Shown here piece by piece: positions 1 to 61,569 of a stretch of 64,000 bases of DNA. The notes below the pieces were generated by a model. The model was not told where the DNA came from. It saw nothing but the letters and a program-made list of their open reading frames with translations, and ran no database searches. Made by a program: the position numbers and the translations under genes. Origin of the DNA: Schmidtea nova (Eukaryota); NCBI GenBank assembly GCA_044892505.1, contig CM097882.1, positions 320,230,001 to 320,294,000 on the forward strand, written 5' to 3'. How positions within the stretch are numbered: position 1 is the stretch's first letter; each line of letters begins with the position of its first letter.

Positions 1-273
1 ATTTGCTTCTTGATACAAGTCATCAATAATAATCACATCACCTTTGCTCAATCTAGATGACCAATTTTTATTGAAACCTTTTATGATTGTCATTTTTATT
101 TTACAAAATTGATCTTGAGTCAATCCATGTTCATAGTCAGCTCTCCTATGCCAATAAATTTTATTGAATTTAAATTTGAATAATTTCGATTGTAATAATT
201 TACAAACAAATAAAGTTTTTCCACTCCCACTCGGACCAACAATTTGAAACACTGCATAATTTCTTAATTCCAT
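1..273 (-). CDS. A32/FtsK-like DNA packaging ATPase of Polinton type, N-terminal 91 codons, open to the window edge
   Basis: Translated by hand from ATG at 273: MELRNYAVFQIVGPSGSGKTLFVCKLLQ...SKGDVIIIDDLYQEAN. Walker A is GPSGSGKT and Walker B is VIIIDD. No stop, so it is absent from the ORF track. Confidence 0.88.
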   Translation of the reverse strand, partial: MELRNYAVFQIVGPSGSGKTLFVCKLLQSKLFKFKFNKIYWHRRADYEHGLTQDQFCKIKMTIIKGFNKNWSSRLSKGDVIIIDDLYQEAN

Positions 274-366
274 ATTTAAAAATTATATTAAATTAGTATT
301 ATTGTTTATATTTGTTATAAATACTCGTTGTCAAAGTACTTGTTTCATTTAAAAATATTTTCAGTA

Positions 367-834
367 ATGATTAGAAACATTAATTACAAGGGTAAGACAG
401 ATGTGTCACACATGAAATTTCCAAATGAGAAACCACAGCAAATTGTAGATAGAAGTGGAAAGTATCAAATAATATACTTAGTGACAGGAAGATATAGAAT
501 AATAGGATGCAAGAAATTTATTAGTGATGAACAAGTAAAGTTTTACGATTTAACAATACAATCGATAACTGTAACTGCAGATTTAGGATTTATTTGTAAT
601 TTAAATGAATTATCTAAATTGATAGAATGTATTTACGAGCCAGAATTATTTCCAGCTTTGAGATATATCAAATATAATCCAATGTGTGTAAATATATTTG
701 GAAGTGAGAAATTAGTCATATTAGGATTAAAAAACAAAGACTATTCAAATATAGTTGATAATATTATTAACAATATAAAATCAATTATCAAAGATAAAGC
801 CTTTGTTGATTTCATACTAACATGTGACTCATGA
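367..834 (+). CDS. TATA-binding-protein (TBP)-like protein, 155 aa from ATG 367, intronless, element-encoded
   Basis: IQSITVTADLGFICNLNELSKLIECIYEPELFPALRYIKYNPMCVNIFGSEKLVILGLK matches the second TBP core repeat (IQNxVxSCDVKFPIRLEGL...YEPELFPGLIYRM..P.IVLLIFVSGKVVLTGAK). A shortened, degenerate first repeat ends IIYLVTGRYRIIGCK. Confidence 0.85.
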   Translation: MIRNINYKGKTDVSHMKFPNEKPQQIVDRSGKYQIIYLVTGRYRIIGCKKFISDEQVKFYDLTIQSITVTADLGFICNLNELSKLIECIYEPELFPALRYIKYNPMCVNIFGSEKLVILGLKNKDYSNIVDNIINNIKSIIKDKAFVDFILTCDS

Positions 835-1098
835 CTGCAATATTGATGCAATAGAAATGCTTAATTCGGATTGGTCGAGTGTGTATTTCGAGAATAAAGA
901 CATGTTGTGCATGCTTGAATTTTATTTGTTCAATGTGTATTATCTTGTACATGATGTGTGTTTATATCATATATAAACTCTGAACATTCTGTCATAATTT
1001 ATATCTACAATATGTCTCAACAAACAAATATTTTAAAAAGTGGTAATATTAAAATTACTATTTTTCAATTTTAATATATTTTATTTTGAGATAAACTC

Positions 1099-1615
1099 AT
1101 GTCCGTGGTTTACACCAAATTGACTGAAATGTTCCCCAATCTGATGCAAACGCTGACCTTTACAGCACCATAGCTGTTCCCGTACAAAATTCAAGTTTTG
1201 ACGGGAATAGATGTCAATCAGGTATTGCTGGATCATCAGGCCAATATCAACAACGAACTGCCCTATTTGGCGGAATATATATTGTGCGCCTACCAATGCG
1301 GGCACTGTGTTGATAGAATCCACAGGTTTCAAGTGTGGGTTCTCAGAAATACTCTCAATCAATTTGAGACATAGCAGATGAAGAAAATTGTCGAGGAGGA
1401 TGAGGAGATGGAAAAAAGAAACATGTCCCAATTCAACTCCGGAGCCGATAGATGAACAATCAACTATCGAATGTGATTGTTCTGTGAATGAAAAACAGTG
1501 CGACGAATCACCCGAATCTCCAGATTGTGACGAATGTCACAGAGTTGTTGAAAACAATGAACAAGAAGAAGAAGAAGAAGAAGAAGAAGAAAACGACGAA
1601 GAACAACAACAATGA
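1099..1615 (+). pseudogene. Disrupted Polinton accessory ORF with a CxxxCxxC motif and an acidic tail; function unknown
   Basis: GC-richer island. The + frame from ATG 1099 reads MSVVYTKLTEMFPNLMQTLTFTAP*LFPYKIQVLTG...YILCAYQCGHCVDRIHRFQVWVLRN... with two stops, followed by the Glu-rich ORF 1388-1615 in another frame. Confidence 0.4.
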
Positions 1616-2018
1616 ACAATATTTATGTTTAAGTTTTTTATTGTAATCAGTTTTAGTTTTTTATCGTTTTTTAGTTTAATGTTAATTTTGTATTTAGTAT
1701 TCGGTCATTTTTATTATTTAGTTTTTGTCATTTTAGGTTAATCATTTTATTTTAATAAATGTTTTGGATTTTAGTTTTAGTTTTTTTTATTAAACATGTA
1801 TTTTATTTTAATTTGAAGTAATTTTTATTTACTTTTTAGGTATATATTTTATTAAACATTTAAGTATTTTTTTAAAACTTTTTAGTAGCTTTTTTATTAT
1901 TAACTAAGTTATATATAAAAAGGAAATAATTAAAGAATGAATAGAGATTATATGAAAAAATTAAAATGAATATTAAAAAATTATAATTAAATAAATAAAA
2001 CATATAAAACATGCATGC

Positions 2019-2558
2019 ATGCATACAACAAAGATAACAAAGACATGCATATCGTGTGCAATACAAATGGATGATTATGATTGGATAAATACATACATTC
2101 AAAACTATAAATACAAAAACAATTTTAAGATATTGTCACAATCTATAAAAATGAAATCACGAAAACAAAATTTTGATATCAGCGAAGAAAAAATATTCCC
2201 GACTAAGGTAAAACCAGTCCAGATGTATTATGATAGCCGAATTTATTTTTTGGTTCAAGAAATTCCGTTTCGCTTATCTTATCCGATAAAATTAACAAAG
2301 TCGTTGTACGCTAGTCTTGCTGTAATTATTGATAAAGAAGATATTATGGCTCTAAATAAATTATTTTCAAAGATCAATGTGAATTTAACTTGTAAAGAAA
2401 CGATGTATATCAATAACAAAAATACTCGTTTCCATAATGCTTTTCAAACTATCGAATTCAAGGATCAAGAACACTGGTTCATTATGATAATTATTCAAGG
2501 ATACAAGATTGATATAAAGGAAGTGATTACTCCAATTTGGAGAGTTGATAATGCATGA
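2019..2558 (+). CDS. Conserved Polinton accessory protein, 179 aa, function unknown
   Basis: Intact ORF. A diverged homologue lies in copy B at 59923-60162 (EDIMALNKLFSKIN...IQGYKIDIKEVITPIWRVDNA vs EDVAALNKILSKIN...FQGYKIDTKDVITPIWRINNA). TATAAAA lies just upstream. Confidence 0.7.
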   Translation: MHTTKITKTCISCAIQMDDYDWINTYIQNYKYKNNFKILSQSIKMKSRKQNFDISEEKIFPTKVKPVQMYYDSRIYFLVQEIPFRLSYPIKLTKSLYASLAVIIDKEDIMALNKLFSKINVNLTCKETMYINNKNTRFHNAFQTIEFKDQEHWFIMIIIQGYKIDIKEVITPIWRVDNA

Positions 2559-2627
2559 TATGCATAATTGTGATTTAATAAATTTTAGTATAAACAATTT
2601 TTATATTATTTTTTGTTTTTATATTAA

Positions 2628-2891
2628 ATGAAATTGAATATAGTGATATTATTATTATGTGTGAACAATACAGATGGAGAACATGCTTTGTCAGCTTGCC
2701 AATCAACCCATCCGTTTAGAAGAGAAGATAGTACTTGTTCGAGTTATAATGAAATATGTGTTCACTTAAACATTGAATGCAGCCAAATATGATTACAATG
2801 TGATCAATGTCCTTCAAAAAATGTTTTGATTAATAATGAAATGTGTTGGGCAAAAACTGCAAATAATTTTAATAAAGCAGTAACCCCCTAA
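2628..2891 (+). pseudogene. N-terminal half of a putative membrane glycoprotein (signal peptide plus Cys-rich ectodomain), copy A
   Basis: MKLNIVIFIIM, a frameshift, then ALSACQSTHPFRREDSTCSSYNEIC...QCDQC. Near-identical peptide in copy B at 60303-60545. Confidence 0.6.
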
Positions 2892-5800
2892 GTAGAGAGC
2901 GCGCAAGATTCAATTTTAACCCAAACATCCATTAAAAACCGAAGCGATTAAGTGAGAAACGCCAAAAAGGTGAAGTGGACTCAAAGACATCAACTAGTAG
3001 AAAACGCGCTAGTTGGGAATCTGCAAGTCCTTACACTGAAACCTCAAGAAAAATTAAAAGTCGTCAAAGGAAGAACGTTTAAAAGTTAGAATGGACGGAA
3101 AACCCATCGAAAATGCCCATAAAGAATAGAATTTTGTCATAACACTTCAGTGCAGAGAAAAATTAACAAAATTTTAGAAGAAAATTGTGATTTTATCCAA
3201 AAATTTCACATCAAAAATAAAAAGATCTAATCCTGATCGAAATATAGTAAATTGAATCAAATTGAATAAATTTTGATTCAAAAATAAAAATTTTGGATTA
3301 AAATAAATCATTTATAGTTTAAAAAAAATTATTACGTAAAAATATTGATTTAATTTTGCGGAAAATTATTAGAATTAATTTTGAGAAATTAAAAAGAACA
3401 TTCTAGAACAATTTGTTTTATTGCATTAGTGAAGGTAACACGCAATCGATGGTATATGTACCGCCATCAAAATGGCAAGAAGCAGAATTTGTGTGGAAAT
3501 TTTCTTGTTTTTAGAACTTGTGAGAATTTTGTGAAAAATTTTGATTAAAAATATAAATTTCCACTCAAACCAGAATTTTTAGAAAAACCATTTATTTTCT
3601 CGAGAGAAAGAAAAACTGTTAGGAAAGCCACATTTGAACGTAAGGGTATCATTATTTTATTTTATGTTTTTTTATTGTTTTATCTTATTTTATTAACATT
3701 ACATCGATATAGGAGGCTCAAAAAGTCATGCCCTTTGGACACCCTATGTCGGCATTGCTCTTATTGAATTTTTTTAGCTATTTTTATTTTATTATTAAGA
3801 TATTTGTTATTTGGATATTAATAATTTTAGTGTAAATATTATATTTTATAGTTTATATGATCTTATTATCCTAAATTTTAACTTTTAATTTTGTTTTTCA
3901 TTAACATTATCACAGATTCCCATAGTTATAAAGTTTCAGTATTTTAAATATCAGTTATCAAATAAATAATTTTATTTGCTTCCATACCCCTTGAAATCTG
4001 TTCTGGCCTTGTGCCGAGCGTGTGGAAGTAGCCTGAGCGGATCGCTGGTTCGATTCGTAATCGATCAGCCCATTTTCCGACTTCAGGTGATACGCCCAAA
4101 CATCCATGATCACTTCATCCCAACTGGGGAACAGTGGCTTGGCCAAGGGCAAGGTGTTATATTAATGATCTGTAATTTATAGTAGTGTATCTTTTATCTG
4201 AATTATATTTTTAACATAATGTGCACTTAAAACCTGATACTGTATAAAAACGTTAACGTCAATTCATCCATCAATGACTTTTCCATTTTATAATTTATCT
4301 GTACAAGAATATTCAACTCGTTATTCGCCTTCACTCTCACAACAATTGCAATCTTATCCGAAAACACATGTCGAATAAAAGCCAAAATTGAAAAAAGAAT
4401 CGTTCAAAATAATACTCAAAACCGATAAAATAATTACCAAGAAACGAAATATGAAGAAAAGTATTGATTTATTCGAACTAAATCTCATTAAATGCTTAAT
4501 TATCTAAATAATTTTACTCCAGTGAACCTTGTTTTCGGGAGCCTGAAGTTCCTGAGTGAAGTGTCTCGAAAAATTCGCGCGCACTCTGTTCAGAAAATTC
4601 ATGTTTGAACGAAACCGAAATTCACCTATTTGATGTCGAAAACTATTATGAATTAGAGTTGATTTTTAATGTTAACCGAACGAAGATAGATAAACTGAAA
4701 TAAAAATTTATTGTGAAAATTACTTTAGATCAACAGGTTTGAATCCTTGTGGGAATTTCCGAATCCAGAATTTTACTTTAAAAGCATTTGCCTGAAAGTG
4801 GATAAATTTTAAGTTATTTCTTTATTTTAATATATTTAGGAAAATTTATCAATTAAAATTTTATTTATTGTGTAAAATGCAACATTTAATTATAAAACCA
4901 AAATTTGCTTCTGAGAATTATATCACGAAAAAATTTAAAGCACCAAAATTTTTATTCTTCTTAAAAATATTAAAAAATTTATAAATCGAGTCCTCATATT
5001 AGTTGGAAGAATTAAAATTTTTCTTAATATATAAAGTATAAATCGAAAATTTTATTAAAATTTTAAAAATTTAGCTAAAAAGATTATAGCTAATAAAATT
5101 ATTGCTTTATTGCAAAATTTAATTATATATTTATGTAATTTATTAATTCATAAATTAACCCCCACGATATTATAAAAAATATAATACATCCATATTTGCA
5201 AAGCAATACATCCACACCATTCATTAACACCATCCATACTAATACCACATGAAACATTTACTTAAATACAACACACACACCCTACCACATTTCAATCAAT
5301 ATGATCTTCTATACTAAATAATACGATAAACAATACATCCACTCACCAACACACACAACGCGATTTCATCTAACAGTAGCTACTAGCATCATACATCCAG
5401 ACAATTCCCACAAATATTCATACAATCCCATCCATTGTTTATCGCCCATTGCAGTAGCATCACTTTCAACATACAAACACATACATTTACAACAATAGGA
5501 TATCTATTTCAATATATTACAGCATTATTTCAATATTATATACACACAAGCCTACAATCACTACATCTCGTCTCACCAAACCACAGCAAACTACAACATC
5601 CCATATAAAGTCTCATTATAGGGTACAGTACGTCGATTCATAAACACCACCCGATTAATGGTGGCCAACAATCTGCATTTATATCAATTTCACCCCCTGA
5701 GAGTTGGATCCCCCACATATCTCTGCCGATCAGCCCACTTCACTCGCTAAACATACCTTATAGCAATGAAATACATTCAAAAAATTTTTAAATTTCAATA

Positions 5801-7295
5801 AGGTAATAGAAACAAAAACATATATTTATATTTTCAAAACCAGGAAAAAGGATAATTAATAATTTTATTTAATCGAAACAGAATCAAAAGATTTGTAAAA
5901 GAAGTTACCAAGCGATGATGATTGTTTTCTGGAGAGTTCTATTGTGTTCTCAGTTTGATGAATTCGATGGCGAATTTGTTCAATGAGAGTCCATATGGAA
6001 GCTGTGCAAATAAAACTGAACGAATGTTGTACTGGGGCATAAGAAAATGGTATAACACAGCACAACAATTATATGAGATATTTTTTTAACCGTTATACGA
6101 AGTAAATAGCACAGAAAATTATAAGATTCCAAGCGTCTGATTTGGGAATTTCGTCGGACGATTCTGCCGTATTGTGGCCGCATCTTAAATAAAAATGGAG
6201 AGTTTCAAACCCCATATTCACTGAGATTCATGGGGAAATTGCCATTTCGGATGCCGGTGATGCTTTGTTTTCGTCCTAGAAAGAAAATAGAAATAGATAA
6301 GCAGGATAAAACCTTAAGCTTTCAAATTTACCGGTTTCTGGGGAAAATCCTTATTAAAAACCAAAAATCGATATTTATAATATTGTATGTAACAAACAAC
6401 CAATCAGGTTGAATCTTATTTATATCGAAATATAAAACAAAAATAAATTTTTGTATATAATGCTCTGTAAAATTTCTTTTTTCAAATTTTTCTATTCGCT
6501 AAGAACGGGTTTCAGTGAATAACCTTTAAATTAAAAAATAAAGGAAGTTTCCGTTTAAACATAAATGGTCTTCAAATAGGTAAATTAAAGACATTAAAGT
6601 TTGTTTAAATATCCTACATTGTAGCCGTTACAGTTGTCAAGGCCACGGCAAGAATTCAAAAGCTATGAGGTTAAATTTTAAATTAAAAATTAAATCCACA
6701 ATATAAAGCAAGATAGACATTAGGTATAGGGAATAAGTAAAATTTAGTTAAATTTACCGACACAAAATATACCAATTTAAAAATTTTGGAAAATAATAAA
6801 AACCTTGTTAAAATCTACAGAAATCAAATACCCCGAATATGTGTAATGATCAAAGATTATTCGATCCCCGAGTTGAGTTTGCGATTATATGCGTAATTAT
6901 GAGCTTGCAAATAAAAATAAATGCGCGAAAACTCCTGTGCGTTTGGATAATACTATGTATAATGATTAAGTGGGAAAAAATTAATAAATTTATATTGATG
7001 GAACTATTTATGTTTTTTTTTAAATTGAAATGAATATCCGTAGTTAAATCGTTGAACAAGGGACAAAAATGGGCATTAAATCTTCTATCGGTAGCCCTTG
7101 GACCCAGGAGATATTCGGCCAATCATAGTTTCGTATTGATGACGCTCACTGATTGCGAATACCCACCCATTTGTTGCATTACCAACGTTACATTGTTACG
7201 GGCAACAAGATGTTTATTCTAATGTTTTATGTGTTGAGTTGTTGATGAGAGCCATAGCAACGTCAAGGTCATATTGACTATCACAAACCCACCAA

Positions 7296-7659
7296 ATGGA
7301 AAAAATGATTAGCAAAATCTATGAAAGAGTGAAATGTCCGAATCAAACATTTATTAAAATACAATATGAACAAATCAGATGTCAAAATCAAACTGTTGAA
7401 ATTGAAAACGAAAAAACAGCATTAGGATTACATTATATAAGTTTATTGATATTAATAGTGATCTTGATATTATCAACGTCGATAAGATTAGAGAAAATAT
7501 CGAATATTCCTAAAAATAATAATCCTACGAATAATATTCCGATTGAATAATATTCCGATGAATAATATTCCTATGAATAATATTCCTATGAATAATTTAG
7601 ATATGAATAATTTTGAATCGAAATTTTGTACACGTACACTAGAATATATTTATAAATAA
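7296..7659 (+). pseudogene. C-terminal half of the putative membrane glycoprotein (NQT sequons, TM helix, NNIPM-repeat tail), copy A
   Basis: KIYERVKCPNQTFIKIQYEQIRCQNQT...LHYISLLILIVILILSTSI, then 15-bp repeats encoding NNIPM after a 1-nt frameshift, ending NNFESKFCTR. Homologous to 60599-60895. Confidence 0.65.
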
Positions 7660-8099
7660 ATTTTATTTAGTCTTTGTATTTATTATTTTTAATGTCTTTG
7701 TTAATATTGCACATGGATTGTTTAATTATTTTGGCAATGTGTTTGTTAACTATGTGGTTGTTTAAAACTAAGTATGAAGTTATATAGCATCGTGTTCATA
7801 GAGCGGTGGCGGTTCGAATGATTCCATTGGTACTTGGATTTTTTGAAATTTTTGAAATTTTTAATTTTTGGTCCAAATTTAATTATGAAAATGATATCAT
7901 CGTGTGCGTCACTGAAAAGCAGAGGGACTGATACTACTTTTAATCTTGGTACTTTAAGTAATTTTGTTTTTGTTTCAAAATCTTATTTTTTGATGAGACA
8001 CATTCAAAAATGTGACCATCGTGTGTGTCACTGAAAGGCCTTGCGAACGATACCAAATTTGACCTTGTTATTTGTACTTGTAAAATTTTTAAAAAATTA

Positions 8100-8921
8100 T
8101 TTAAATTTAAAATGAGTTATCGATGACGTCACTTTTTTCAAATTTGAAATGAGTCATCGATGCGTCGTGGTGTGATTCATCGATGAGTCATGAGGGTGAG
8201 TCACCAATGTGATGAGTCATCAACGAGTTATCGTTTTAAAATTTTAAAATTTAAAAATTTAAAAAAATAACTTGTCAGAAAATAGCTGAGAGTGTGATGA
8301 AGGATACAAACCAAAAATAATTTCAAAATAATCAAAATTGAGAAAGTTCAAAAAAAGTTCTTATTTTTGAATGAGTCATAAAAGTTTTAGATGAGTCATC
8401 GATGAAGGATCGATTGGTCGAATAACAAAAATTTTTTAAAAAATTTGGGTGAGTTATCGGTGGTCATAAAAATAATTTTTTTTTAAAAAGTTGTTAAAAA
8501 AAAAATTTTGTTAAAAAAACAAAATATTTATCGAAAATAATAATGAATCATCGATGAGTCATCGACGCGTCATAAAAAAAAGTTTGAAAAAAAGTTTGAA
8601 AAAGAGAATATTTTTCAAAAATAATGATGAGTCATCAATGACTCATAAAAAAAAAGTTTGAAAAAAAGAGAATTTTTTTGAAAAATATTATGACTCATCG
8701 ATGCGTCATAAAAAAATTTTTAAAAAAAAATTTAAAAAAAAACAGAAAATTTTTCAAAAAAAAGTAAGAAAAAAAATTAAAAATTTTTTTGACCCCCCTC
8801 GCCAACGTAAATTTTTTTACCCTCTACCCCCTCGGTGGGGGGCTTTGGTTACTAATATGTCTTTGTTTGAATTTTTACACCCACGCATTTCTTTGTGCTT
8901 GACTCCACACATCTACCTACT
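8100..8921. repeat. Terminal inverted repeat region of Polinton copy A with tandem GATGAGTCATC-containing subrepeats
   Basis: Ten perfect TGA(G/C)TCA motifs and one TGACGTCA between 8124 and 8697, interleaved with A/T runs. The same motif occurs inverted in the left end of copy B. Confidence 0.75.
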
Positions 8922-32700: not shown

Positions 32701-33264
32701 ATATATTACTAGAAGTAGAGTTCATGTTAAATTCAATAATTCAAAGCACAATTGGATTCAGTCCAGCAGAAGTAGTTTATGGAAAGAAAATTTACAGAGA
32801 ATGGCCTTCGACAGTTTTTGGCGAAATGGAAGTGAGTGATTATATGAAAGAACAAAACAAAAGAAAAGAGATTCTAGATTCAAAATTACGCTTAAATGAA
32901 GAAAAATTGATATATAACAACTCAGCAAGAATAAACCGTGAGTTTTCAATTGGGGATCTAGTTTTAGTAAAAAAGGACGTAAGAACGAAAGACGACGATA
33001 GGCTTGATGGTCCATGTGAAGTAATAGAAAAGAACCATGATAGGAGTTATAAAATAAAAATGCCAAATGATAAAATCTTGATTAGAAATATCGAATGGCT
33101 TAAGTGATACCATATAAGCAAATAATTGAAAATAAAAGGAAGGGGGTGTGAGATGAAATTGATAAACTAATTATATATTATAAAAATCAGTATGAGTGTT
33201 ACAGTATGTATATGTTGTGTATGAATGTTGAAATTGCTCAAAGTATTATTTATATTAATATATA

Positions 33265-33325
<61 letters not shown>

Positions 33326-36300
33326 TCCTAGATAATTAAAAAAGAAAAATATTTGTTTAAATAATATATATTTTTGAACGAAAGCGTGTTTCCAATTTAT
33401 GTACAAGAAAATTAATAATCAACCTAATAATTTGAAAATTAAGTTGAAAAATAAGTTGAAAATTTAAAGTTATTTTCGAAACTTTAGTGAAAGTTATTGT
33501 TATGTAAATATAATTTTTAATAAAAATATGGTCAAGTGGGAAACCTTTAAGTTCAAAACTCATCGCAAACTAATTTCTGCTAGTAAGATTGTGTTAGAAA
33601 GGTTCTACTTCCTAGGTTTATATATAATAGGTCATTATTAACCAGTTATTCGGTCATTTTCAAAATACTTTTTATATTGATTTAAAAATATATTGATTTT
33701 AAAGTATTAAAACATTACCAATTTTCACTCAATAGACTTGGGAAACTCTTACTACCAAGTAAAGTTAGATAAAGAAACTCAGGAAAAATAGCAATTTTAA
33801 CAAAAGATGGACAATTTTGTTTCAACAGAATGCCTTTCTACATTGCAGCAGCAGAAGGCACATTCCAAGAACTAATGACGAAATTATTAAATGAATTATG
33901 GAAAGAAGGAATAATGGTATATTACAAACTCTTACAAACTATTACAAACTCTTAAATAATAGTTTTTATGGGAAAACGGTCGAAAATCTTAAGAAACGAC
34001 TCAATTTATGACTATGTAATTCAGCATCAAAACTGATTACACTGATTACATATACATAGTCTCTGTGCTTCTTAATAAGGACTCTGTGTGTTTAGATAGA
34101 CCGAGTTACATTGGTCAAACTGTACTGGATTTATCTAAACTTAGGATGTATCAACTCCAGTATGAAGAATTACAAAAATATCGTAATCAATTCAACTGTG
34201 AGTTTGGTATAGTCGCTAGTGATACAGATTCTTTCTTCTTGGAAGTTAAGAATTGTAAGTTGGATATTCTTTTGTCTGCTATGGTTAGGGATAGATTATT
34301 AGATACTTCGAATTGTGACCCAAATCATACCTTGTACTCGAAAAACCTAGATTCTGTCATTGGTAAATTCAAAGACGAGAATAAAGGATTCAAGTATGAT
34401 GAGTGGGTCTTTCTTAGTCCAAAGCGTTACAGTCTTTTAGGTGATGAAGAGTGCATTAAGGCTAAGGTATAACAGTGAAGGATACTAAATTGAATCATCA
34501 GTCGTATCTGGATTGTTATAATAATAATTCAATAGTTTCTGTTGATCAGTCGAGAATAGTTAGTAAGAATCATCAACTCTTTACTAATAAATATTCGAAA
34601 ATTGCCTTGACTAATCTTGATGATAAAAGACTTTGGGTAGGAAAAAATGTTAGTTTGGCTTATGGACATTATAAAGAGATTGATGCGGTTATGGGGGTGT
34701 GTGAAGATGCTGCTGAATCCGATGAAGAATTTGCTTGAAGATGAAAAGATTTATTTAAATAAAGATTTATTTTTAAAATACTTTGTGTTTTTATGACTTT
34801 TTTATTGTTGAATGTTAAATTGTGATTATATTTGATGTAAAAATTATTAAATTATGAGCATTTCTACCCAAATAAGGTTTTTTCGTGTAAAATTTATTAT
34901 TTTTCATGTTTTCATTTTTTGTTTGCCGTTTAAATCTCAGTAGATTGATATAAAAATTATTGAAATCTGAGCATTTTTGATTTTTGGAATTTCCCTGTCG
35001 ACTATTTTTACGTGTAAATTTGACCGGATGAGTTCAATTTTTCATGTTTTAACTTTTTGACCCTTTTTGTTCACCATTCAATTCTCAGTAGATTGGTATA
35101 AAAATTATTTGATTCTGAGCATTTTTGTAATTTTTCGAAAAAATGTTGAAAACTATAAATAATTTTATAATTTTCATAAAATTTATGAAAAAATAAATAT
35201 AAATTTATAAATTTCAGTATAACATCATCAGGCACGTAATTGCTATACGATTATTCAATTTTTAAGTATTACAAAAATTTACGTAATATATTAAGTATTA
35301 TGTAATGTTTAAGTTATTACTACATTACACATAAAGTATTGTTTAATAATTCCATAATTATTATGTAATGCATGACGTATTACGTATTGATTATGTAATA
35401 CATAAAGTATTACGTGACTTCGGGGGTGGGCTGTGGTTAAATTCTATAATTATTACGTAAAATATACAGCTTATGGATAAATGGCTTGTGCTAGACTACT
35501 CACTAGTCCCTACCATTGATATTTACGAGAACAATAGAAGAACATCACAATATACTGTGGATGGTATTAGAAGAAATTTCACTGACAAAATTAAGAATTA
35601 ATCCAGAAAAGTGTCAAATATTGAAAAAAGAAGTTAGGTTTCTTAATAAGCAGCAAAGTGATTCGAACAGACCAAAGTAAAATAGGAGCGATACCGTCTT
35701 TTGAAAGACAAAATGCATTAAAAACTTAAGAGGTTTTTTTAAGAATATGCAATTATTACAGATGATTTATTAAAAAAATATGCGAAGAAAGCGAGAGCGT
35801 TGAAAGTATTTGTGAAAAAGATAATGAAAAAATAATTTAGACAGACATATGTCATATAGCATTCGAAGAAAGGAAAAAGGAATTGAGGATGACACCGGTG
35901 TTAATATTCCCGGATTTTAGAAGAGAGTTAATTCTGGACACTGGCACTAGGTTTGATACAATTAGAGCGGTACTTTCTCAAAAAGATGATCTAGGTCCTA
36001 GATTCTAGGACATGAACATGGTATTACCTATGAATCCCATGCAATGAGCAACCATGAAAAAGGCTATTGTATAAAGAGCAAAGAATTACTGGTAAATAGT
36101 TTAACCACTATTTATATGAAAAAGATTTTTTTTGTGAATAGATCATAAGGCTATTACCTTTATGTTGACAACGAAGAATCCAAAAACTGCACAATTTCAA
36201 ACGTGGATCAATCATTTAAGCAGTCTGGATATAGAGATTGAATATAGGAAAACATTGATCATGTAAATGTGGATATGCTGTCAAGGAAAACGTGCGGAAC

Positions 36301-36748
36301 ATGTATACAATGCATGATGGAACACGAAGAACAGGAAAGCAGACAAGTAAAATCAAGATTATTAATAGTAACAACGGAAGACAACGTAAATAAGTGGCAA
36401 AATGATAATGTTGAGATAAAAAATAAAGAATGAAATAGAAAAGTTCCAGAACGGAAGATTCATCATAAAAGAGAATAAGATATACGAACAAGAACAAACT
36501 ATAGATGCCAAAATGTAAAATACGAGATATGATCAAGGAAACGCTTTCAATGCTATGACATGCAGGAACACCGAAAGTAATAAACTACATAGAAGATTTG
36601 GTAAAAGAAGTAAAATCAGTAATTGAAAACTGTATTGCGTGTCAGAAAACGAAGACATGTACAATAAAGACAAAAGAAGAAACTATTTTATATGATCTAT
36701 TTGAGATGATCTATATGGATATATGTGGGCCAATGAAAGAAACAATCA

Positions 36749-36787
<39 letters not shown>

Positions 36788-38620
36788 GGGTATCATTGGT
36801 CACTACAGTAAATACATTTCTCTGTCTGCTATAGCTAAACAATATGAAAAAACAATATTGAAAATTTTGCAAAACAAATGGATATTAAGATATAGAGCAC
36901 TGAAAGACTACATATAGACTGTGCGAAATATTTTGAGTCAAACTGTTTAAAAGAATTGGCAAAGTCAACAGGAATCGAAATAGCGTTTTCAAGTCGATAT
37001 CACCATAACACCAATGGATTAATAGAAAGGCAATCTCGTACAATCAGATTATATTAACGCGTCGTTAAGAGAACAAAGCGGAAAAGATTGGACAGAGAAT
37101 TGGGATAAGTACGACAGACACATTGAAAATGTGAGAAACCTTTTTTTGCTTCTTAAATTTTATTTTTGACCTTTAACTCTAAATTATCCACACACAGCAT
37201 GAAAGTTTGAGTACGGTATTTTCCAAGTCAAAATTTCATGCATGATCAAAAAACGGTGTATATATTGAATTTACTAGAACCTATCATTAAAAGTCAAAAT
37301 AAATTTGGATAATTTCATCATAGATTCATCATATTCGAATGAGTCAATGAAACAATTAAATAATTAATTATTGAAGGATTTGAATAATTTTAAAAGAATG
37401 GCGATATCGTATTTCTCAGTTGATATCAAAATTTCATCAATTATTGAAAATGATTGTCTTCTTTGTAACATTGTTTAAAATAATTAATTAATTTAAATAT
37501 ATTTAAAACAAATTTGATTTGTTTCTTTATTCATTTACGTTAATATTGTTTACAAATTACATTTATATTGCACAAATGAATCAATTTAATAACCAATTAT
37601 TTTAATGACCAGTCAATTTATCGAAAATTTCACTATTATAAGCTGTTATATTGATGATATGCAGTCAATATAGTGATGAATATGTATGGTCAAGTGAGAA
37701 GCCTTTAAGCTCAAAAACCATCGCAAAGTGAGTTTTACTACCAAAGGTTCTGTCACTATGATAAATAAAATACGACAAATATTGAATATTATCACATTAT
37801 ATGGCGGGTAAATACTCGTGAAAAATAATCATACTATAGAAAATACATATAGAAAATACATATAGAATCATACATACAAAATATCAAATATCAATAAAAA
37901 TCATCACACAAAAAATCTTAACACTATAGTGTGGGAACATCAGAAATACAAACATAAATACACAAAAGATCATTACATGCATGAAATATTAGCACACTAT
38001 AGTTCAATAACATAAAAAACACAAAGAGAAATATTATCCTACACATGAAATATTCTCCCCCTTAAGTGCTAAAAATTCCACGCAAAATGTCAAAAATATA
38101 TAAAAATTCATCAAACACGAAATATGTTACACTATAGTGCGGTAACATCAAATATATCATCACACTATAGTGCAACAACAACAGAAATACATACACAAAA
38201 TATAAAAAATACATAGTTATTTATCACACACACAACAATAATCATAAATAAAAAATTAAATTAACACATTAAATTCATATAATAATCATAATAAAATAAT
38301 AATATATAAAAAATGCAATGCAAATGCAATCCGAATGCAATCCGAATGCAATACATGTACATGACTAATATAAACATATAATCACAGTAAATTCACATAA
38401 TAATATTTCTAAAATAATAATAAATTATCAAAATGCAATACTTGTGCAATTGAATGCAATATATATGCATGACTTACACACATACACACAAAAATTGCAT
38501 GTAATAATATTTCTAAAATAATAATAAATATCGAAATGTCTTTTTTAAACTTATAAAAAAGAAGGAGTCACTGTAAAAAAATCTAAAAGAAATGAGTAAT
38601 CGTGAGCTCACAATATTTTT

Positions 38621-38707
<87 letters not shown>

Positions 38708-41700
38708 GTGTCTTTGTCTAGGAATGGGGTTTCGGACTTTGAAAAAAATTCGAAAATAATGAATCATCGTGAGTACACAACATTTTTAGTCTAAAAAAGT
38801 AACAAATGTCTTTGTTCTAATGACCTTTGATCTAAAAAACGTGACTTTTTCGAACTTAGAAAAGTTTTGACAAAAAACGATGAGTCATTGTGAGCTCACT
38901 TCTACCTACTAAATAAATATCCTATTTTTACAGATTATCTAAGACTTTGCATTTTCAAGTGATATGATATCCAGTGTACCATTATTAATTCAATTAGTTA
39001 ATTTTAGTTGGTTTTTCGCAACTTCAACAACTTCTTGTTATTAATAGAGTTTCTCCTAAAAATAAATGGTTTTTCATTTGACAGTATGAATTTTGCATTC
39101 AAAGTGTTAATCTTTCATTTATTAGTGTTTTTGGTAATTGTGATTATTTATTTATAACTATTTTTTAAATGAACTTTAAAAGAAAGTAAATGTGCTTGGT
39201 GTAAAATACTTTACTCCTTCAAACCACAGGTTGGGTGTAGTCAGTCATTCTTTTTCAAAGTATTTGATGAATGCAGGTTGGTCGGTTTGTGATGAACAAA
39301 TTGGAAGCTTGATCAAATATTTCTCTTGACAGTGATAATTGTAATGTTTCAATGTCAGAAATAATTTCAGTTTGTTGATTTTTGGTAACTAAAGTTTTCA
39401 CTTTTTTGGTCACATTGCGATGAACATGTGCCCAAAACATAATCATTTGTGTGTCACCAAATATTTCCTGAAATGCATTTCGGATTGCATTTGCTGAATC
39501 AGCAATCAGAACCTCTGCTTTGATTTTTTGTTGATTGATTTTTTGCGATCCGTCAATCAAGCTTTGAAAGACAAATTTAAAGTCTTGTTTTTCTTCATTG
39601 GTACACACTGCCATTCCAAATGGGTGAAAATGGCGATCCAAATCAGTTGTCCCAACTATCAGAACTGGAAACCCTTGCCAAACTAATTTGTAAGTTGCAT
39701 CAGCATGAATGTTAATGGAAGTTGAAGCTGTAGTGAGCAACCTTTTGGTTGATATGAAGAAGCGAAATTTTGGACCAGCCACTTCATCAACATCTTCATC
39801 ATCGCCAAATTCATCATCATAGATGATTTCGTATGATACAACAAAAGGATTATCCACGTCCAGTTCTGTTTGTTCCGTTTGACTTGACTCTAAGCACCAT
39901 TGTTCCAATTCACCGAGGCTTATTGTTGCAGTGCCAAATTTTTCTTTTTTGATTTTGTTATATAGTTTCGCAGCTGGACAATGTTTGGAACTTGAAAGTG
40001 CTTTCTCTGCAATGCTTCCATTATTGCTTTTGGCTTTAACTTGAACTCCAGAAGCTGTTTGATTTCTTGTTGGACTTCTGGGGAAATTTTGGATTTCAGT
40101 GAATCGAGTGAGTCGTGTGTGTGTTCAGCAGCACATCGGAACAATACAACATCTTCACTTGCTGCATCATAGAACAAATAAAGTCCAGCGGCACATTGCT
40201 GTCCACGCAACTTGACTTTATTGCGTCTGTAATAAATTTTTTTGCCTTAAAATATTGCGTTTGAATAATGTTGACTCCAAAGATTTTCATTTTTAACTGC
40301 ATCCCCGCTTTCCTTTTTATTCTTGAAAACACATTCCCTCTTCAGCATCTGAGAAATATTCTGGTAATTCCATGATAAAAGTCTTTGAAATGCTTTTGTT
40401 AAAATCTAAAATATTTTTTTTAAAGATTGGTATTAACTTTGAAATCAATTTTAAAACTTATCAAAATAATTAAGAATTATATCAATTTATAATTTTAACT
40501 GGTTAATTCATTAAATTACTGATGTTTTAATAATTAACTGATCATTTAATTAAAAAACTTAATATTTATTAATTAACTGATCAATACAATAAATTACTGG
40601 TAATTAAATTAATTAACTGGTCATTTAATCAATTTACTGGTGATTTATTTCTTCTACTGATCACAAAATACTGGTCATTTAAATTAAAATACTGATCGTT
40701 TAAATCGCACCCTTTTATTTTGTATTAAGATTCTTCCAAAAATATTTTTAAAAAATTATCACAGTTATCAAGAAACACTAATAAATGAAACATTAACACT
40801 ATTAATTGTAAATGATATACTCTCAAATGAGAAACCTTTAAATAAAAGAGAAAATATAAAATTTTAATTAAAAGTTATTATTTAAAATACTTAATCTTAT
40901 TTTATTTTAATACGACTTTTACTCCAAATATATTTACCATTTTTCGATGTAATTTTAATACATTGTTTTGTCAATTTATTTTATTCTGTTTTATTTGAAA
41001 TAATTTTATATCTTCATTTTAATTAGATATTTTCTTATTACAGGGTTTTTCATTAATTTTTGTGAATCATACTTTTAGATGAAAATCTCTATAATTAGAA
41101 AATACCTAGTTAAAATTGAAGATATAAAATTACATAACACTAAATGTACCAGAGCCGTCAAATGATCGCTTTGTAAACTGTCGAAATTTTTAAATTCAAT
41201 TTTTTCGCTTTTCTTCAACTTTTTTATGACTTTTCAACACATCTTTTTTGTTGTATTTGCTGATAATCTTATGCACTTTATCATTAATTACGATGATTAG
41301 ACTTTTACTATATTTAAAAAAATAACGGGAGGCTACGTGTTAAAATGAAATACAAAATAAAATAAATTTAAAAAATGTATTAAAATTACATGATTTGTTT
41401 TAAACTATTTGATCTGAAAAAAATCATAAACAATTAATTGATATATAATCAAGTTTTAAATTAATTTTATATTAATTATTAAAGGATAAAAATATTATAA
41501 TTAAATTTAAGTAAAACGCTATTAAATTAGAAATTAAAACTATTAACTGCAAAGGTCACACTAATAGATAAGAAAAGCTATAAATTAGCAAATTCTGATT
41601 TATTATATGAAATCAATTCTAAATATTTTTTTTATTTTTCTTTATAATTTAGTGAAATTTTTATTTATTCTAGATTGATGCAATCGAAAATAATGAATTC

Positions 41701-47135: not shown

Positions 47136-47201
<66 letters not shown>

Positions 47202-52848: not shown

Positions 52849-52994
52849 GTGAATATCATTTCATTGTGTTAATGATATATTTTTCCTCAAGATGTTTTTA
52901 TTTATATTTGCAATATTCATAATTTATACTTTAAAAGCACCACCGTTTAATCAGTGAGGTATTTTGAATTTGCTATCTCATGTTGCGACCAGGT

Positions 52995-56345: not shown

Positions 56346-56387
<42 letters not shown>

Positions 56388-56763
56388 CCTCTTCCCTTAC
56401 ATTTTACTGAAAACAAAGCTTCTTAATGTACTTTCAAAGCCCCGTCTATAGTTTTATAATCTATAGTTTTCATAAATCAAATTTTATATGTTTTCATAAG
56501 TAGGTAGAAGTTTGGAGCCTTGGACAAAGATATATGACTCATCGGTCATTTATAACAAAGAACACGAGTCACCCCTACTCCCGGGTAGAAAGCTTTTCTT
56601 TATTATTCATCGATGACTCATTTCAGTTTCAAATTTCCAGTTTGAATTTCCAAAAGTCAAATAAGGTCAATACAAAGAGGTTTATACAAATGTCAAACCC
56701 TCGAAGGTTTATGAAGGGTCCGAGACTTTCAAAGGGTTCAAAACCTTCACATTATTTCAAACC

Positions 56764-56852
<89 letters not shown>

Positions 56853-57104
56853 CGAAAGGTAATTGAAGAGTTTGTAGAATGGTCATAGCTTAGAAGGTGT
56901 ATGGTGGGTGCTCGACCCTCAATGAATCAAAAAACTTTAAATCTTTTTAATCCTTACAAGTTATATATCATTCGAAAGGTTTTTGAGAGTTAAGTATGAT
57001 GGTCATACCCTGAAGATTTATGGTCGGTAAAAAATACGGGTCACCTTGTTCATTCAACACATCTTCTCTCAGGACATATGCTGGATCACATATAAATATA
57101 TTGG

Positions 57105-58035
57105 TGTCACGTCCTCTATAATTGTCATATGCCAGCCTTTTATTTTTAATTTTTTAGTGTCTCTTATCATCTTTACAGCTTAAGGCCCTCTTATTATTTT
57201 TTATACTGAAAAAGGGGTGATTACTTGATGTTATTCTAAACTGGGGGACTGTGTAGATTTTATTATTTAAATAGCAATCCAGATACGACTGACGTGTTAA
57301 GTCTAGTATCTTTCATGCTAATCCTCTTAGCTTTCATACTTGTCTCATCTATCATTAAACTAAAACATTTGTGCCTTAAAAACACATACTCTTTATAAAT
57401 TAGTCCTTTATTCTCGTCTTTAAATTTTCCAATGACAGAATCGAGGTTCCTACTGTATAAATGATAATTAGGTGTCAAGAAGATTGTCCTTAATCATCGC
57501 CAGTAAAAAAATGTCAAGTGAGAGATTTTTAATTTCCAAAAAGAAGGAATCAGTATCACCAGCAACGATATTAATTTCGCAGTTGAAGTCATCACGTTAT
57601 TTTTGAAACTCTTCATACTAGAGCTGGTACATTCTAAGTTTGGATAGATCCAGTACAGTTGGACCAATGTAACTAGGTCTATCCAAATACATTGATTCCT
57701 TACTTAACAAAACAGAAATCAGGTCATCGTCTATTTTTGTTGTTTTACGGAAAGTCAGTTTAGAACATTATGTTATTAATTTTCGTGGTGAATTGCACAA
57801 ACACACATTTATGCGCTTTTTCAGATTTTTATCAGTCTTGCAGTAAAGACGGTTGTTGAGTAATTTGTAATAATTTTTATCTAATTTATTTGAGGACGTT
57901 GCCTTAAACGTCGTATTTGTGTTTATGTAATTTTGAAATATTTTATTTTGTATAAATTTTATTGCTCGATGTGTTTTCGTTATTTTAACACTTAATTCAA
58001 TAATTAGTTGCACCTCCAAGCGCGAAAACTTTACT
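57105..58035 (-). pseudogene. polB: Family B DNA polymerase (Polinton type), C-terminal fragment, copy B
   Basis: ITKTHRAIKF.Q...YYKLLNNRLYCKT..NLKKR; LDRPSYIG.TVLDLSKLRMY; AGDTDS; GKFKDE; DDKR. Several stops and frameshifts. Confidence 0.88.
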
Positions 58036-58059
58036 CGAGATTTCAATAACATGATTGAT

Positions 58060-58617
58060 ATCTATTATAACTCTTAAATCATCACTACATTGTTGTGTGA
58101 AATCAAGAAAAAGATATCCACGAGGAGCTTTTGTAGAATCTTGAAACGCATCAATCAAGAAATTCGAAGGGTAAGCTTGTCTTGCTAGAAAGTCAATAAC
58201 TTTTGCATCTCTAGGATTTTTAAAAACAACAAGTTTCAACATTTAACTTCCGGACTCAATGACTGCCACCCTGATGAAATAAATTCTGTAACTCCTTTGT
58301 GTCTGGCTATTTTTGTAAATAAGTTATTAAAATCCTTTACTTTATTTGCTTCTTGATACAAGTCATTAATAATAATCACACCACCTTGTCGTAATCTAGA
58401 TGACAAAATTTTATCGAAACCTTTCTATTGTTGTTATTTTTTATTTTACAAAATTGATGTTGAGTCATTCCATGTTCATCATCAGCTCCCCTATGCCAAT
58501 AAATTTTATTTAACTTTGATTTAAATAATTTTGATTGTAATAATTTACAAACAAATAAAGTTTTCCACTCCAACTCGGTCCAACAATTTGAAACACTGGA
58601 TCATTTCTTAATTCTAT
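58060..58617 (-). pseudogene. Polinton packaging ATPase, copy B
   Basis: Walker A mutated to GPSWSGKT, Walker B VIIINDL, C-terminal VFKNPRD...LARQAYP...DAFQDSTKAPRGYLFLDF. The start codon reads ATA; frameshifts present. Confidence 0.88.
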
Positions 58618-58758
58618 ATTTCTAATTTTATTAATTTATTATCATTGTTTATATTTGTTTTAACGGCTTAAGGCACAGTTCCGTGACATATACGGGCAAA
58701 AAGCCCTTAATAATAAAATAAATGTGCATTAAGGGGTCATATTTAAAAGTTTTCATTA

Positions 58759-59224
58759 ATGATTAGGAACATAAATTATAAGAGTGAGACTGATGTATCT
58801 CACATGAATTTTCCAAATGGGAAAGCTCAGCAAATTATTGATAGAAGTGGCAAATATCCGATAATATATTTTTAGACCGATAGATTTAGAATTGTGGGAT
58901 GCAAGGAATTTATTAGCGATGAAAAGTAAAGATTTATCATTTAAAATCCAATCTAATACTGTAACGGCAGTCTTGGGATTTAGTTGTAATTTAAATGATT
59001 TGTCTAAATTAATGGAATGTGTTTATGAGCCAATAATATTTCCAGCTTTTAGATATATAAAATATAACCCCATGTGTGTTAATATATTTGCAAGTGGTAA
59101 AGTAGTTATATTAGAGTTAAAAGCTAGGGACTTTTAAAATATAGTTGATAATATTATTAACGATATAAAATCAATTTTTGAAGAGAAAGAGTTTTTAGAT
59201 TTCATATTAACACGTGACTTATGA
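58759..59224 (+). pseudogene. TBP-like gene, copy B (stop plus frameshift)
   Basis: MIRNINYKSETDVSHMNFPNGK...*TDRFRIVGCK / IQSNTVTAVLGFSCNLNDLSKLMECVYEPIIFPAFRYIKYNPMCVNIFASGKVVIL. Collinear with 367-834. Confidence 0.85.
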
Positions 59225-59922
59225 TTGCATAAAACCTACAATAGAAATGCACGATTTTGATTGGTTCAGTGTGTATTTCGTTAATAAAGACATGTTATAC
59301 ATACTCAAATCTGATTGTTTCAGTATGTATGTATTATTTTATTGTGTGTTACTGCCTGTTAAGGGATCAAGTTAATATTTTTAATAATTTAATTTTTATT
59401 ATGTTGGGATTGTTATAATAGTTTATTGTTTATCGGTCATATGTTTGTTATTTCCGCCTCCTAGCCCCCAAATTCTTGTGTTCATTTAGTCGTTTATTCC
59501 CTATAGTAAATACCTTGGCAGTTTACTATAGTGAATTCAAAAAATTTAAAATAAAAAAAAATCGATTAAAAATTATTAGAAATAAAATTACAAACACAAA
59601 TCCAAGGGCAAAGCTCGATCCAACAATTATCCGGTTATTATAATCAGTATTATTACTCGATAGTTATTCGATGATTATCTACAAATTATTATTTGACATT
59701 AATTATTCAGCAACCTGAGAGTATTCGATTTTTAATGTTTTTGCGGTTCAGTAAATAAAATTTTATAAAATTATTGTTTATTATTTTGCTATTAATAGTG
59801 GTTAACAATTAAAGCAATAACAAACACTGGCACACAGACACTTCATTACATACTCAACAAAACATTCACCCCAGCTGTCCCAAGACAGATTTTTACTGTA
59901 GACTCTACTGGGCTCAAAAGAT

Positions 59923-60162
59923 CTAACTAAAGAAGATGTTGCTGCACTAAATAAAATTTTATCGAAAATCAATAAAGGTTTAAGTTGCAAAGAAACTGTT
60001 TGGATCAACAACTGACAAACTTGTTTCAAAAATGCTTTCTAATCTATCGAATACACGGATCAAGAACATTGCGTCGTTACTATAATCTTTCAGGGATATA
60101 AAATCGATACTAAAGATGTTATAACTCCAATTTGGAGAATTAACAATGCACGGTATGCATAA
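59923..60162 (+). pseudogene. C-terminal half of the ORF 2019-2558 homologue, copy B
   Basis: TKEDVAALNKILSKINKGLSCKETVWINN*...DQEH...FQGYKIDTKDVITPIWRINNA, two stops. Confidence 0.8.
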
Positions 60163-60302
60163 ATGTTTTTCAATAAATGCTAATTGATAAATGTTATTTA
60201 ATAAATTTTATTATTAATAATTTTAGTTTTTCTTGGTATATTTGTTTTATAAGTTTTTATTATTAAACAGATTTTTTAGTATTTGTTTTAATTTACAACA
60301 AA

Positions 60303-60311
60303 ATGAAACTT

Positions 60312-60370
<59 letters not shown>

Positions 60371-60895
60371 TATCATCATATTATTATTATTATTGTTGTT
60401 CGTGAAAACTACAGAAGAAGAAAAAGCTTTATCAGCTTGCCAATCGACGCATCCTTTCCGAAGAGAAGATAGTACTTGCTCGAGTGACAGTGAAATATGT
60501 GGTAGCTTCAACAATGAATTTAACCAAATTCAAATGCAATGTTAACAGTGTTCTCCAAAACACGATTTGTCAAAACCTGATTTGATAAAAAAATAAAATT
60601 GAAAAAAATCTATGAAATAGTTAAATGTCAAAATAAAACAATTATGAAAACACAGTATGAACAAATTAGATGTCAAAATCAAACAAACCAACTCGAAAAC
60701 GAAAATACAGTATTAATATTACATTATATCAGTATATTCATCCTAATAATGATCTTGCTAATATCAGCTTCAATATGGCTTGAGAAAATGTCTAAGGTTC
60801 CTACGAATAATATTGCTACAAATAATATACATATGAATAATATTCCTATGAATAATTTTCAATCAAAATTTTGTACACGTGATCAACGTTATTAA
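60303..60895 (+). pseudogene. Putative type-I membrane glycoprotein, copy B (signal peptide, Cys-rich ectodomain, TM helix, NNIPM-like tail)
   Basis: Two adjacent ORFs separated by a stop and a frameshift in an A run. NKT and NQT sequons; hydrophobic LHYISIFILIMILLISASIWL. Confidence 0.65.
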
Positions 60896-61569
60896 TAAAT
60901 ATATTTTTTTATTTTGTCTTAGTCTTTGTCTTTATTAATTTATAAGTCATTATTATTATCAAGATGCGCGGGCATTGCAATGTCTTTGATAACTTTCATT
61001 TGCATTGCAATATCTTTGTTTAAATAGCGGTAGCAAATTCTTTTCGAACACACACCATTAAGGGTTTGACCATGAAACTTATTATATATATATATATATA
61101 TATATATTATAAGGTTTGAAAAAATTTGAAATTTTGTTATCCTTTGAAGGTTTAGCACCCACCATTAACCTTAGAAAATATGACCATGATACTTAAATTT
61201 CAAATACCTTTCGAATGATATGTATATTATTAGGGTTTAACATTTTTGAACCTTGGACCCTCGAACTCACAAACAAAATTCATTTTGAATGATATATAAC
61301 TTGTAAGGTTCGAAATTATTTGAAGGTCTTTTACCCTTTGAGAGTCGAGCACCCACCATAGACCTTCGAAGGTATGACCATCATACTCACCCTNNNNNNN
61401 NNNNNNNNNNNNNNNNNNNNNNNNNNNNNNNNNNNNNNNNNNNNNNNNNNNNNNNNNNNNNNNNNNNNNNNNNNNNNNNNNNNNNNNNNNNNNNNNNNNN
61501 NNNNNNNNNNNNNNNNNNNNNNNNNNNNNNNNNNNNNNNNNNNNNNNNNNNNNNNNNNNNNNNTTGAAA

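Follow-up and report, generated by a model that had tools for sequence, protein, structure and literature searches.

Three Polinton remnants in the window

From our analysis of a 64,000-nucleotide stretch of Schmidtea nova DNA (assembly GCA_044892505.1, contig CM097882.1, forward-strand positions 320,230,001 to 320,294,000; hereafter the window), three decayed Polinton (Maverick) elements, copies A, B and C, were found, and A and B carry genes for a packaging ATPase, a compact TBP-like protein, a predicted single-stranded-DNA-binding protein (SSB) and a membrane protein. The three copies appear to be independent insertions, and comparison with related sequences makes it probable that the compact TBP of active members switches on their own late genes. 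The comparison set was drawn from 186 metagenome candidate stretches, 85 of which encode a relative of the TBP-like protein; the 80 loci kept carry L numbers. The features of copies A and B are as follows.

Copy A
1..8921: right part of a decayed Polinton that starts before the window (ends, profiles, contig matches)
1..273 (-): packaging ATPase, 5' 91 codons, open, with Walker A and B (Pox_A32, E 0.0015; 70% to the L015 ATPase)
304..310 (-): TATAAAC box, 37 nt upstream of the ATPase start codon (motif)
316..323 (+): canonical TATA-like TATAAATA, 51 nt upstream of the TBP-like start codon (motif)
367..834 (+): compact TBP-like gene, 155 aa, open (PF00352, E 8.7e-11)
972..1455 (+): TATAAAC box (972-978), 40 nt upstream of a broken open reading frame (ORF) at 1012-1455 that B does not have
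2022..2558 (+): 179-aa ORF, predicted SSB, open; domain 2208-2555 (structural matches)
2589..2843 (+): TATAAAC box (2589-2595, motif), 39 nt upstream of the membrane gene 5' part, which has one stop; Cys-rich putative glycoprotein
2844..7294: 4451-base insert within the membrane gene, TG...CA ends, 4-base AATG duplication (contigs, ends)
7295..7665 (+): membrane gene 3' part, with a single strongly hydrophobic segment; its tail is a 15-nt repeat
8149..8698: nine perfect palindromes of the AP-1-like form ATGA(C/G)TCAT within the right end (0.6 expected per window)
8909..8921 (-): right terminus (motif scan); flank AAATAT, a candidate target duplication

Copy B
56499..61393: Polinton with an internal deletion, its left end at 56499-57033 and the right-end repeats at 61038-61393
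57094..58001 (-): PolB 3' third, broken (profiles, tree)
58057..58653 (-): packaging ATPase, broken (58057-58620), TATAAAC box 58647-58653
58759..59224 (+): TBP-like gene, broken (PF00352, E 1e-7)
59842..60156 (+): SSB-like gene, broken
60305..60895 (+): membrane gene, broken, without the insert seen in A

An earlier interpretation made from the letters alone (the sequence-only reading) held that copy A keeps open ATPase, TBP-like and 179-aa frames; all three are indeed open, but only 91 ATPase codons lie in the window. The decay of A is seen in the nested insert and in stops in two further genes. In its TBP frame, 3 of the 28 strongly conserved columns differ from the family, and one of these three is invariant in 87/87 relatives; among the relatives themselves, 36/87 show no departure at these 28 columns and 20/87 show three or more. 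The 4451-base insert gave no Pfam match in six frames, and its TG...CA ends and AATG duplication resemble those of a long terminal repeat (LTR)-type insertion. It is probably an LTR-type piece, for example a solo LTR, and planarians are known to have giant Gypsy elements according to the available text of PMC6431247. Contigs from three of four sequencing runs bypass positions 2838-7294. ORF 1012-1455 matches a gene of L028 pairwise (E 2e-5; family nicknamed exonuclease-like), a relation that was not significant by profile comparison. No PolB was found in the visible part of A. In copy B every gene has stops or frameshifts, and its PolB has lost the first ~800 of about 1140 profile positions, the remainder directly following the ATPase; B has lost most of its genes. 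All three copies are decayed and none looks able to act alone.

A compact TBP-like protein recurs in Polintons

A direct search with the TBP-like protein gave 20 relatives, a profile search gave 53 clusters at E <= 1e-30, and the 77 TBP proteins of the loci form 59 groups at 90% identity and 45 at 70%. At least one Polinton core gene is present in 40 of the 80 TBP loci; among the 18 loci of at least 5 kb, 14 have at least one and nine have three or more (ATPase, integrase, protease and PolB labels have Pfam support; 40 neighbouring proteins were scanned). The family of the 179-aa ORF occurs in 21/80 TBP loci. The sequence-only reading had described these genes as non-canonical cargo; both the TBP-like and the 179-aa genes are carried, but the term understates what was found, since both recur in many Polintons as a conserved module. 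A search of IMG/VR with the TBP, ATPase and major capsid alignments gave no relatives.

The predicted model of the TBP-like protein (pLDDT 95) is a two-lobed saddle, which would place it in the TBP superfamily by fold. Against the PDB it has 44 matches at E <= 0.001, and among the matches listed all are TBP (TM 0.57-0.71), with giant-virus TBP-like proteins matching more weakly than TBP structures. The second lobe aligns over its full length, best with archaeal TBP (E 4e-23), and identity to TBPs is 20-28%. In the predicted model the first lobe is without both of its helices, on which host regulators bind cellular TBP. The acidic loop of the second lobe, by which TBP binds TFIIB, is kept in the family as YEPELF (E91 in 82/87 and E93 in 86/87 relatives). 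The residues that read DNA are changed: position 66 is S in 81/87 relatives where cellular TBP has N, and the second central Asn is replaced by Ser/Thr in 87/87. The protein is not a canonical TBP, which has two complete repeats, four intercalating Phe and two central Asn. A longer, two-repeat TBP-like gene was observed in another Polinton (L076, 1302-2728), beside a gene for a PC4 coactivator.

A YATAAAC box lies upstream of late-type genes

YATAAAC boxes were counted within 100 nt upstream of start codons in dereplicated loci, the early and late gene classes being inferred from gene function. The box precedes the ATPase gene in 17/19 cases, the major capsid gene in 9/10, the minor capsid types in 4/7 and 5/5, the protease in 5/7, the integrase in 8/13, the PLA2-like gene in 7/8 and two unnamed neighbour genes in 10/14 and 5/6. 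Shuffles give 0.0-0.6 matches per set and random windows 3.3%, and on the opposite strand a single match (protease) was seen across all late-type sets together. The distance from box to start codon is mostly 30-45 nt. None of 56 TBP genes has the box, and 28 of the 56 have a canonical TATA (vs 13 shuffled). A variant TATA-type box before late-type genes that is absent before the TBP gene corresponds to the pattern of herpesvirus-type late promoters.

In the window, the box stands before the ATPase genes of A and B (at the same place), the membrane gene of A and the broken ORF at 1012 of A; the first three of these, together with L081, are out-of-sample cases. L081 is one of four contigs (L081-L084) found by their ATPase alone, and it has a compact TBP and the box before 3/4 late-type genes. 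L082 (box 0/4) and L084 (0/1), in which no TBP gene was seen, belong to another PolB class, while the box counts are 0/6 for L083, with a distant TBP-like gene, and 1/6 for L076, with its longer one. In L083 the distant gene (4714-5232) and the major capsid gene are on opposite strands, and this element may use another box. All four contigs come from GTDB bacterial genome bins and are likely mis-binned eukaryotic DNA.

One lineage, three families

Sequence divergence suggests that A, B and C are three separate insertions of related Polinton lineages, that is, one lineage and three families. The sequence-only reading had taken them for diverged members of one Polinton family; the Polinton part stands, all three copies being Polinton/Maverick remnants with the PolB pieces of B and C as sister rows, but the single family does not, as A and B share five aligned blocks at only 73-80% identity with a third-position bias, and the long ends are unalignable. 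A single transposon family is defined by 80% identity over 80% of the length, and the three copies fall short of it, ends included. B and C PolB share 73% identity over 471 bases, and A and C gave no alignment beyond the shared 13-base end. Differences per codon position between A and B are 7/5/21 and 11/11/25 for TBP, 17/10/30 for SSB and 17/9/24 for the membrane gene, and those between the B and C PolB pieces are 20/9/37. As the differences fall mostly at third codon positions, the copies would have diverged as separate active lineages, under selection, rather than through the decay of a single family.

The PolB pieces were placed in a tree, as the sequence-only reading had proposed, and those of B and C are sisters (support 98/96) beside Polinton loci L005 and L017 (nearest, 51-59% identity); this tree has 10 rows and one well-supported fork, with L080 left out and L076 and L082 on long branches. 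The order ATPase(-), TBP-like(+), 179-aa ORF(+), membrane gene(+), end, also proposed from the letters, holds in A and B. PolB had further been said to point toward an inverted end in B and C; its 3' end faces an end in both, but the C piece lies 4.2 kb away, between retrotransposon-like sequences.

Copy A matches 13,660-29,269 contigs per run at >=90% (four runs of one study, possibly of the source organism), which is not a copy number. The copy A family is very abundant in the host genome, so the presence of three copies in 60 kb calls for no particular explanation; most likely it reflects a very abundant family in repeat-rich DNA. The cluster is ordinary, and the gene module conserved between A and B is what matters.

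Element ends, target duplications and AP-1-like arrays

The terminal motif AGTAGGTAGAWGT was matched four times in the window with at most one mismatch, against 0.06 expected from shuffles: at 8909-8921 (-), 31104-31116 (+, 1 mismatch), 38898-38910 (-) and 56499-56511 (+). The scan agrees with the four termini that had been placed by eye at 8921, 31104, 38910 and 56499, the end at 31104 with its 1 mismatch, and the consensus AGTA(G/T)GTAGA(A/T)GT is common to all four visible ends. The AG...CT inverted ends that are a hallmark of Polintons are seen at both ends of C and at the one visible terminus each of A and B. The second hallmark, a 6-base target duplication, is seen in C, where AAATAA, as reported earlier, is present on both sides; the chance of this is ~0.001-0.002 at local composition, computed for a 6-base match at two fixed places.

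The inverted ends of C (31104-31706, followed by an N run at 31707, and about 38234-38910) are 85% identical over 120 bases and 66% over 600. In B, the inverted repeats 56692-57033 and 61038-61393 share 67% over 348 bases, with sub-repeats at 76-83%; its right terminus is concealed by an N run (61394-61563), with TTCATA at the left flank and TTGAAA past the N run. The first ~110 bp of the A and B ends had been said to align, and an alignment does exist but is modest: 69/125 columns are identical (55%) between the A right and B left ends, z is ~3 once the first 15 bases are excluded, and nothing aligns past ~200 bases. The C ends gave no alignment with those of A or B past the 13-mer (z -0.3 to 2.0 over 60-120 bases), and the sole high z at 600 bases (B left vs C right) covers TA microsatellites on both sides.

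Although the ends otherwise do not align, AP-1-like palindromes are placed in them: 13 of the 14 perfect ATGA(C/G)TCAT palindromes of the window lie within Polinton ends (8149-8698, 31329, 38880, 56534, 56613). Related loci, which are mostly without ends, have 11 such palindromes in 307 kb. An AP-1-type enhancer role for these arrays is a guess.

The SSB-like and membrane genes

The top four structural matches of the 179-aa ORF among 48,161 chains are SSBs of the T7 gp2.5, Enc34, DUF2815 and African swine fever virus (ASFV) CP312R types (Z 7.1, 6.7, 6.5 and 6.0; root-mean-square deviation 2.7-4.3 over 96-124 residues), and the next unrelated chain has Z 5.0. Identity to these matches is 5-9%, Z is below the clear threshold of 8, and the Foldseek E is 0.08. 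The ORF is predicted, from these structural matches, to encode a T7 gp2.5/Enc34/ASFV CP312R-type SSB. It had no match by protein search or in the Atlas, and its relatives were drawn from the TBP loci. In L004, L005 and L033, a short-intron-like CAAGTA...TTTAG lies right before the SSB-like start codon, and the gene may be spliced in some relatives.

The name glycoprotein for the membrane gene is based on a hydrophobic start, seven Cys, three sequons and one membrane segment; its 3' part had no match among longer proteins, in the Atlas or among the loci. In L032 (1918-3327) and four similar loci we observed a leucine-rich-repeat gene with a signal-like start and a YATAAAC box in 5/5. It is a late surface-type gene, distinct from the membrane gene of the window.

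Copy C and its Gypsy filling

Copy C is largely Gypsy sequence and has lost most Polinton genes; its Polinton coding sequence, the PolB piece, amounts to 817 of 7807 bases, and no packaging ATPase was found in it.

31098..38916: copy C with its AAATAA target duplications (31098-31103, 38911-38916; ends and flank comparison)
31891..33365 (+): Gypsy-type integrase (H2C2 and rve) between 106-base direct repeats (Pfam profiles)
33922..34738 (+): PolB 3' quarter, broken by frameshifts (profiles, tree)
35501..37100 (+): decayed end of a Gypsy-type reverse transcriptase (RT), RNase H and integrase (RVT_1, E 2e-6; RT_RNaseH_2, E 2e-4; Integrase_H2C2, E 0.0045)

Both integrases of C are Gypsy-type and not of Polinton origin.

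A proposed late switch and its alternatives

We consider it probable, on comparative grounds, that the compact TBP is made early, recognises YATAAAC and, via TFIIB, brings host polymerase II to the packaging and capsid genes. In an active element, host machinery would first transcribe the genes for the TBP-like protein, SSB and PolB, with a canonical TATA often serving the TBP gene, and the AP-1-like arrays of the ends may act as enhancers. PolB and SSB would then copy the linear DNA from its inverted ends. The compact TBP, with its TFIIB loop kept, its DNA-reading residues changed and the first-lobe helices where host regulators grip cellular TBP missing, would bind YATAAAC and draw host RNA polymerase II to the late genes. 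Integrase would finally insert copies with 6-base duplications. Later decay by deletions, nested retrotransposons and point changes would have broken the copies in the window. That these elements form a widespread animal Polinton clade with the smallest known viral late switch, a single 150-residue TBP retuned to YATAAAC, and that the AP-1 arrays in their ends couple the early phase with stress or wounding, seems to us to have slightly better than an even chance.

Several observations count against a late switch operated by the compact TBP, and the main alternative, which we regard as unlikely, is that YATAAAC is read by a host factor (a forkhead protein, or host TBP/TRF for which it would be a weak TATA box), the TBP of the element serving, for example, as a decoy that holds TFIIB or damps host transcription. 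ATAAACA is also a forkhead-factor consensus; the box is one base away from TATAAAA, and some TBP-carrying elements do without it, as the counts for L083 and L076 show. No integrase, protease or capsid gene of Polinton type was found in the window by profiles from relatives, among which L005, L017, L045 and L050 are examples with retroviral-like integrase, adenoviral-type protease and capsid genes. The major capsid label has a single weak Pfam match (E 0.0073), the minor capsid labels have no Pfam support and come from size and position, and of the four intercalating Phe of TBP only three can be identified in the family. Nor is the box confined to late genes: it is found before SSB-like genes in 3/18 and PolB in 1/3, and variants replace it before the membrane gene of B (TTAAAC) and the ATPase gene of L005 (GATAAAC). 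It was first spotted by eye in the same loci in which it was then counted, and many of these loci share sample names and ancestry, which the counts ignore, so that box and gene may have been inherited together with no reading of the box by the gene product. As the IMG/VR search gave no relatives, the controls without a TBP gene come down to two partial contigs from GTDB bins, of 7.9 and 6.3 kb. Against a host reader stand the strand specificity of the box and its peak at 33-45 nt before the start codon, which is core-promoter-like, its absence before 56/56 TBP genes and from both contigs without a TBP gene, and the DNA-reading residues of the compact TBP, which are changed yet nearly invariant.

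Two further explanations concern the history of the copies. Copy C may, at a tentative estimate and with rather more doubt than belief, be no deleted relative of B but a bare pair of Polinton ends, occupied by a Gypsy element with an acquired PolB piece, so that PolB and the ends would have separate histories. The PolB piece starts at a 10-base tandem repeat, directly after a stretch that resembles the first half of RT by eye, the second half (157-201 of the 205 positions of RVT_1) picks up again at 35516, past the piece, and the ends of C are common to A and B for 13 bases only; the piece may have been inserted into RT. However, the stretch upstream of it has no RT match in Pfam or the PDB, no LTR pair was found around the inner Gypsy piece (score 197 vs up to 180 in shuffles), and the 3' end of PolB faces an element end in B and C alike. 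This explanation touches C only and is compatible with three independent insertions and a late switch by the compact TBP. A single family in which A is near complete and possibly working, with the TBP-like gene and others as cargo taken from the host, is very improbable, although the shared 13-base ends, the common gene order of A and B and the three open frames of A would fit it; it is already contradicted on family by the 73-80% identity with third-position bias and the unalignable ends, and on cargo by the recurrence of TBP and SSB genes in distant Polintons (45 TBP groups at 70% among 77 proteins). The nested 4.45-kb insert and the stops in A, along with its departures at conserved TBP columns, speak against a working copy.

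Surroundings of the copies

Rich in AT and dense in repeats, the eukaryotic DNA of the window holds pieces of hAT, Tc1, MULE, Penelope-type and Gypsy elements. A near-perfect palindrome at 23735-25512 (99.3% over 1781 bases) with two head-to-head GIY-YIG-type ORFs is either an artefact of the assembly or a Penelope-like end in inverted form. The inverted pair 10633-11012 and 18637-18867 (66-79%) has 48-base tandem units and encloses ~8 kb with transposase and retroelement-like pieces; 10633-18867 is possibly another large element with subterminal repeats. An exon encoding a doublecortin domain (DCDC1-like, E 3.8e-6) lies at 52527-52922, and copy B may lie in or beside a doublecortin-domain host gene. 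At 55650-56382 there is an inverted repeat like a miniature inverted-repeat transposable element, with a related second copy at 46651-47167 (75-92%).

Relation to known systems and significance

The elements resemble known Polintons in their AGT-type ends, long inverted ends and 6-base duplication, as described in the available text of PMC8502044 and PMC8097293. They also share the protein-primed PolB (B and C) and the A32/FtsK ATPase (5' part in A, broken in B), and their relatives are Polinton-like in having an rve integrase, an adenoviral-type protease and capsid-sized genes. Vertebrate Mavericks, as far as the text at hand describes them, have (AG)3 and (AGT)2 end motifs, unlike the AGTAGGTAGA of the window elements. 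According to the accessible parts of PMC8097293, most genomic Maverick copies are degraded, in vertebrates too, ends with 6-base duplications are standard, and Polinton particles have not been observed. Alpha and Beta PolB are defined in the available text of PMC8502044, where Beta-PolB adintoviruses correspond to Polinton group 1 and the Beta PolB is divergent from the PF03175 type and has an N-terminal OTU domain. PF03175 does not match the PolB pieces of the window or those of L005 and L017, while it matches L082 (E 5e-55); the N-terminus is absent from the window pieces. As the pieces are nearest to L005 and L017 and not to L082, we infer that they are probably of the Beta class as defined in PMC8502044.

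The label TBP appears once in the accessible text of PMC8502044, in the legend of a figure on MELD viruses and related elements, and likewise in its preprint, and no compact TBP with a matching late box is described in that text, including one supplementary file. The terms TBP and TATA do not occur in the available text of PMC11161782, of a preprint on coral polintovirus or of the 2026 preprint on the PLV framework. The module of TBP and box was not found in this literature; the search did not extend to Repbase, subscription journals, figures or bioRxiv supplements, which may name the gene.

A close parallel is found among herpesviruses of the beta and gamma groups, whose viral TBP (ORF24 of KSHV, the Kaposi's sarcoma-associated herpesvirus, and BcRF1 of EBV, the Epstein-Barr virus) acts at TATT late promoters with five further viral factors (PMC7498053, available text). 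Both systems have a virus-encoded TBP mimic and, ahead of late structural genes, a variant form of the TATA box, with canonical TATA at early genes (for the herpesviruses, PMC7498053, same text). The herpesvirus protein, as that text presents it, is large and has its own polymerase-binding domain, whereas the compact TBP has ~150 aa, no extra domain and the TFIIB loop kept. No partner activators of herpesvirus type were found among the 40 neighbouring proteins scanned in TBP loci. In sequence the compact TBP is closer to cellular and archaeal TBP than to the herpesvirus one; the two-lobed saddle is common to it and cellular TBP, but it is without the first-lobe helices and one intercalating Phe.

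The YATAAAC box can be used to find and class Polinton late genes, such as the membrane gene of the window, and TBP and box together offer a small, direct test (one protein, a 7-base site and a reporter) of the timing of Polinton capsid genes. If the proposal is true, it would be a second and much simpler invention of the herpesvirus-type viral-TBP strategy and would provide a natural TBP with changed DNA specificity. A timed virion programme would, in that case, be direct evidence of a real virus life cycle for these 'transposons'.

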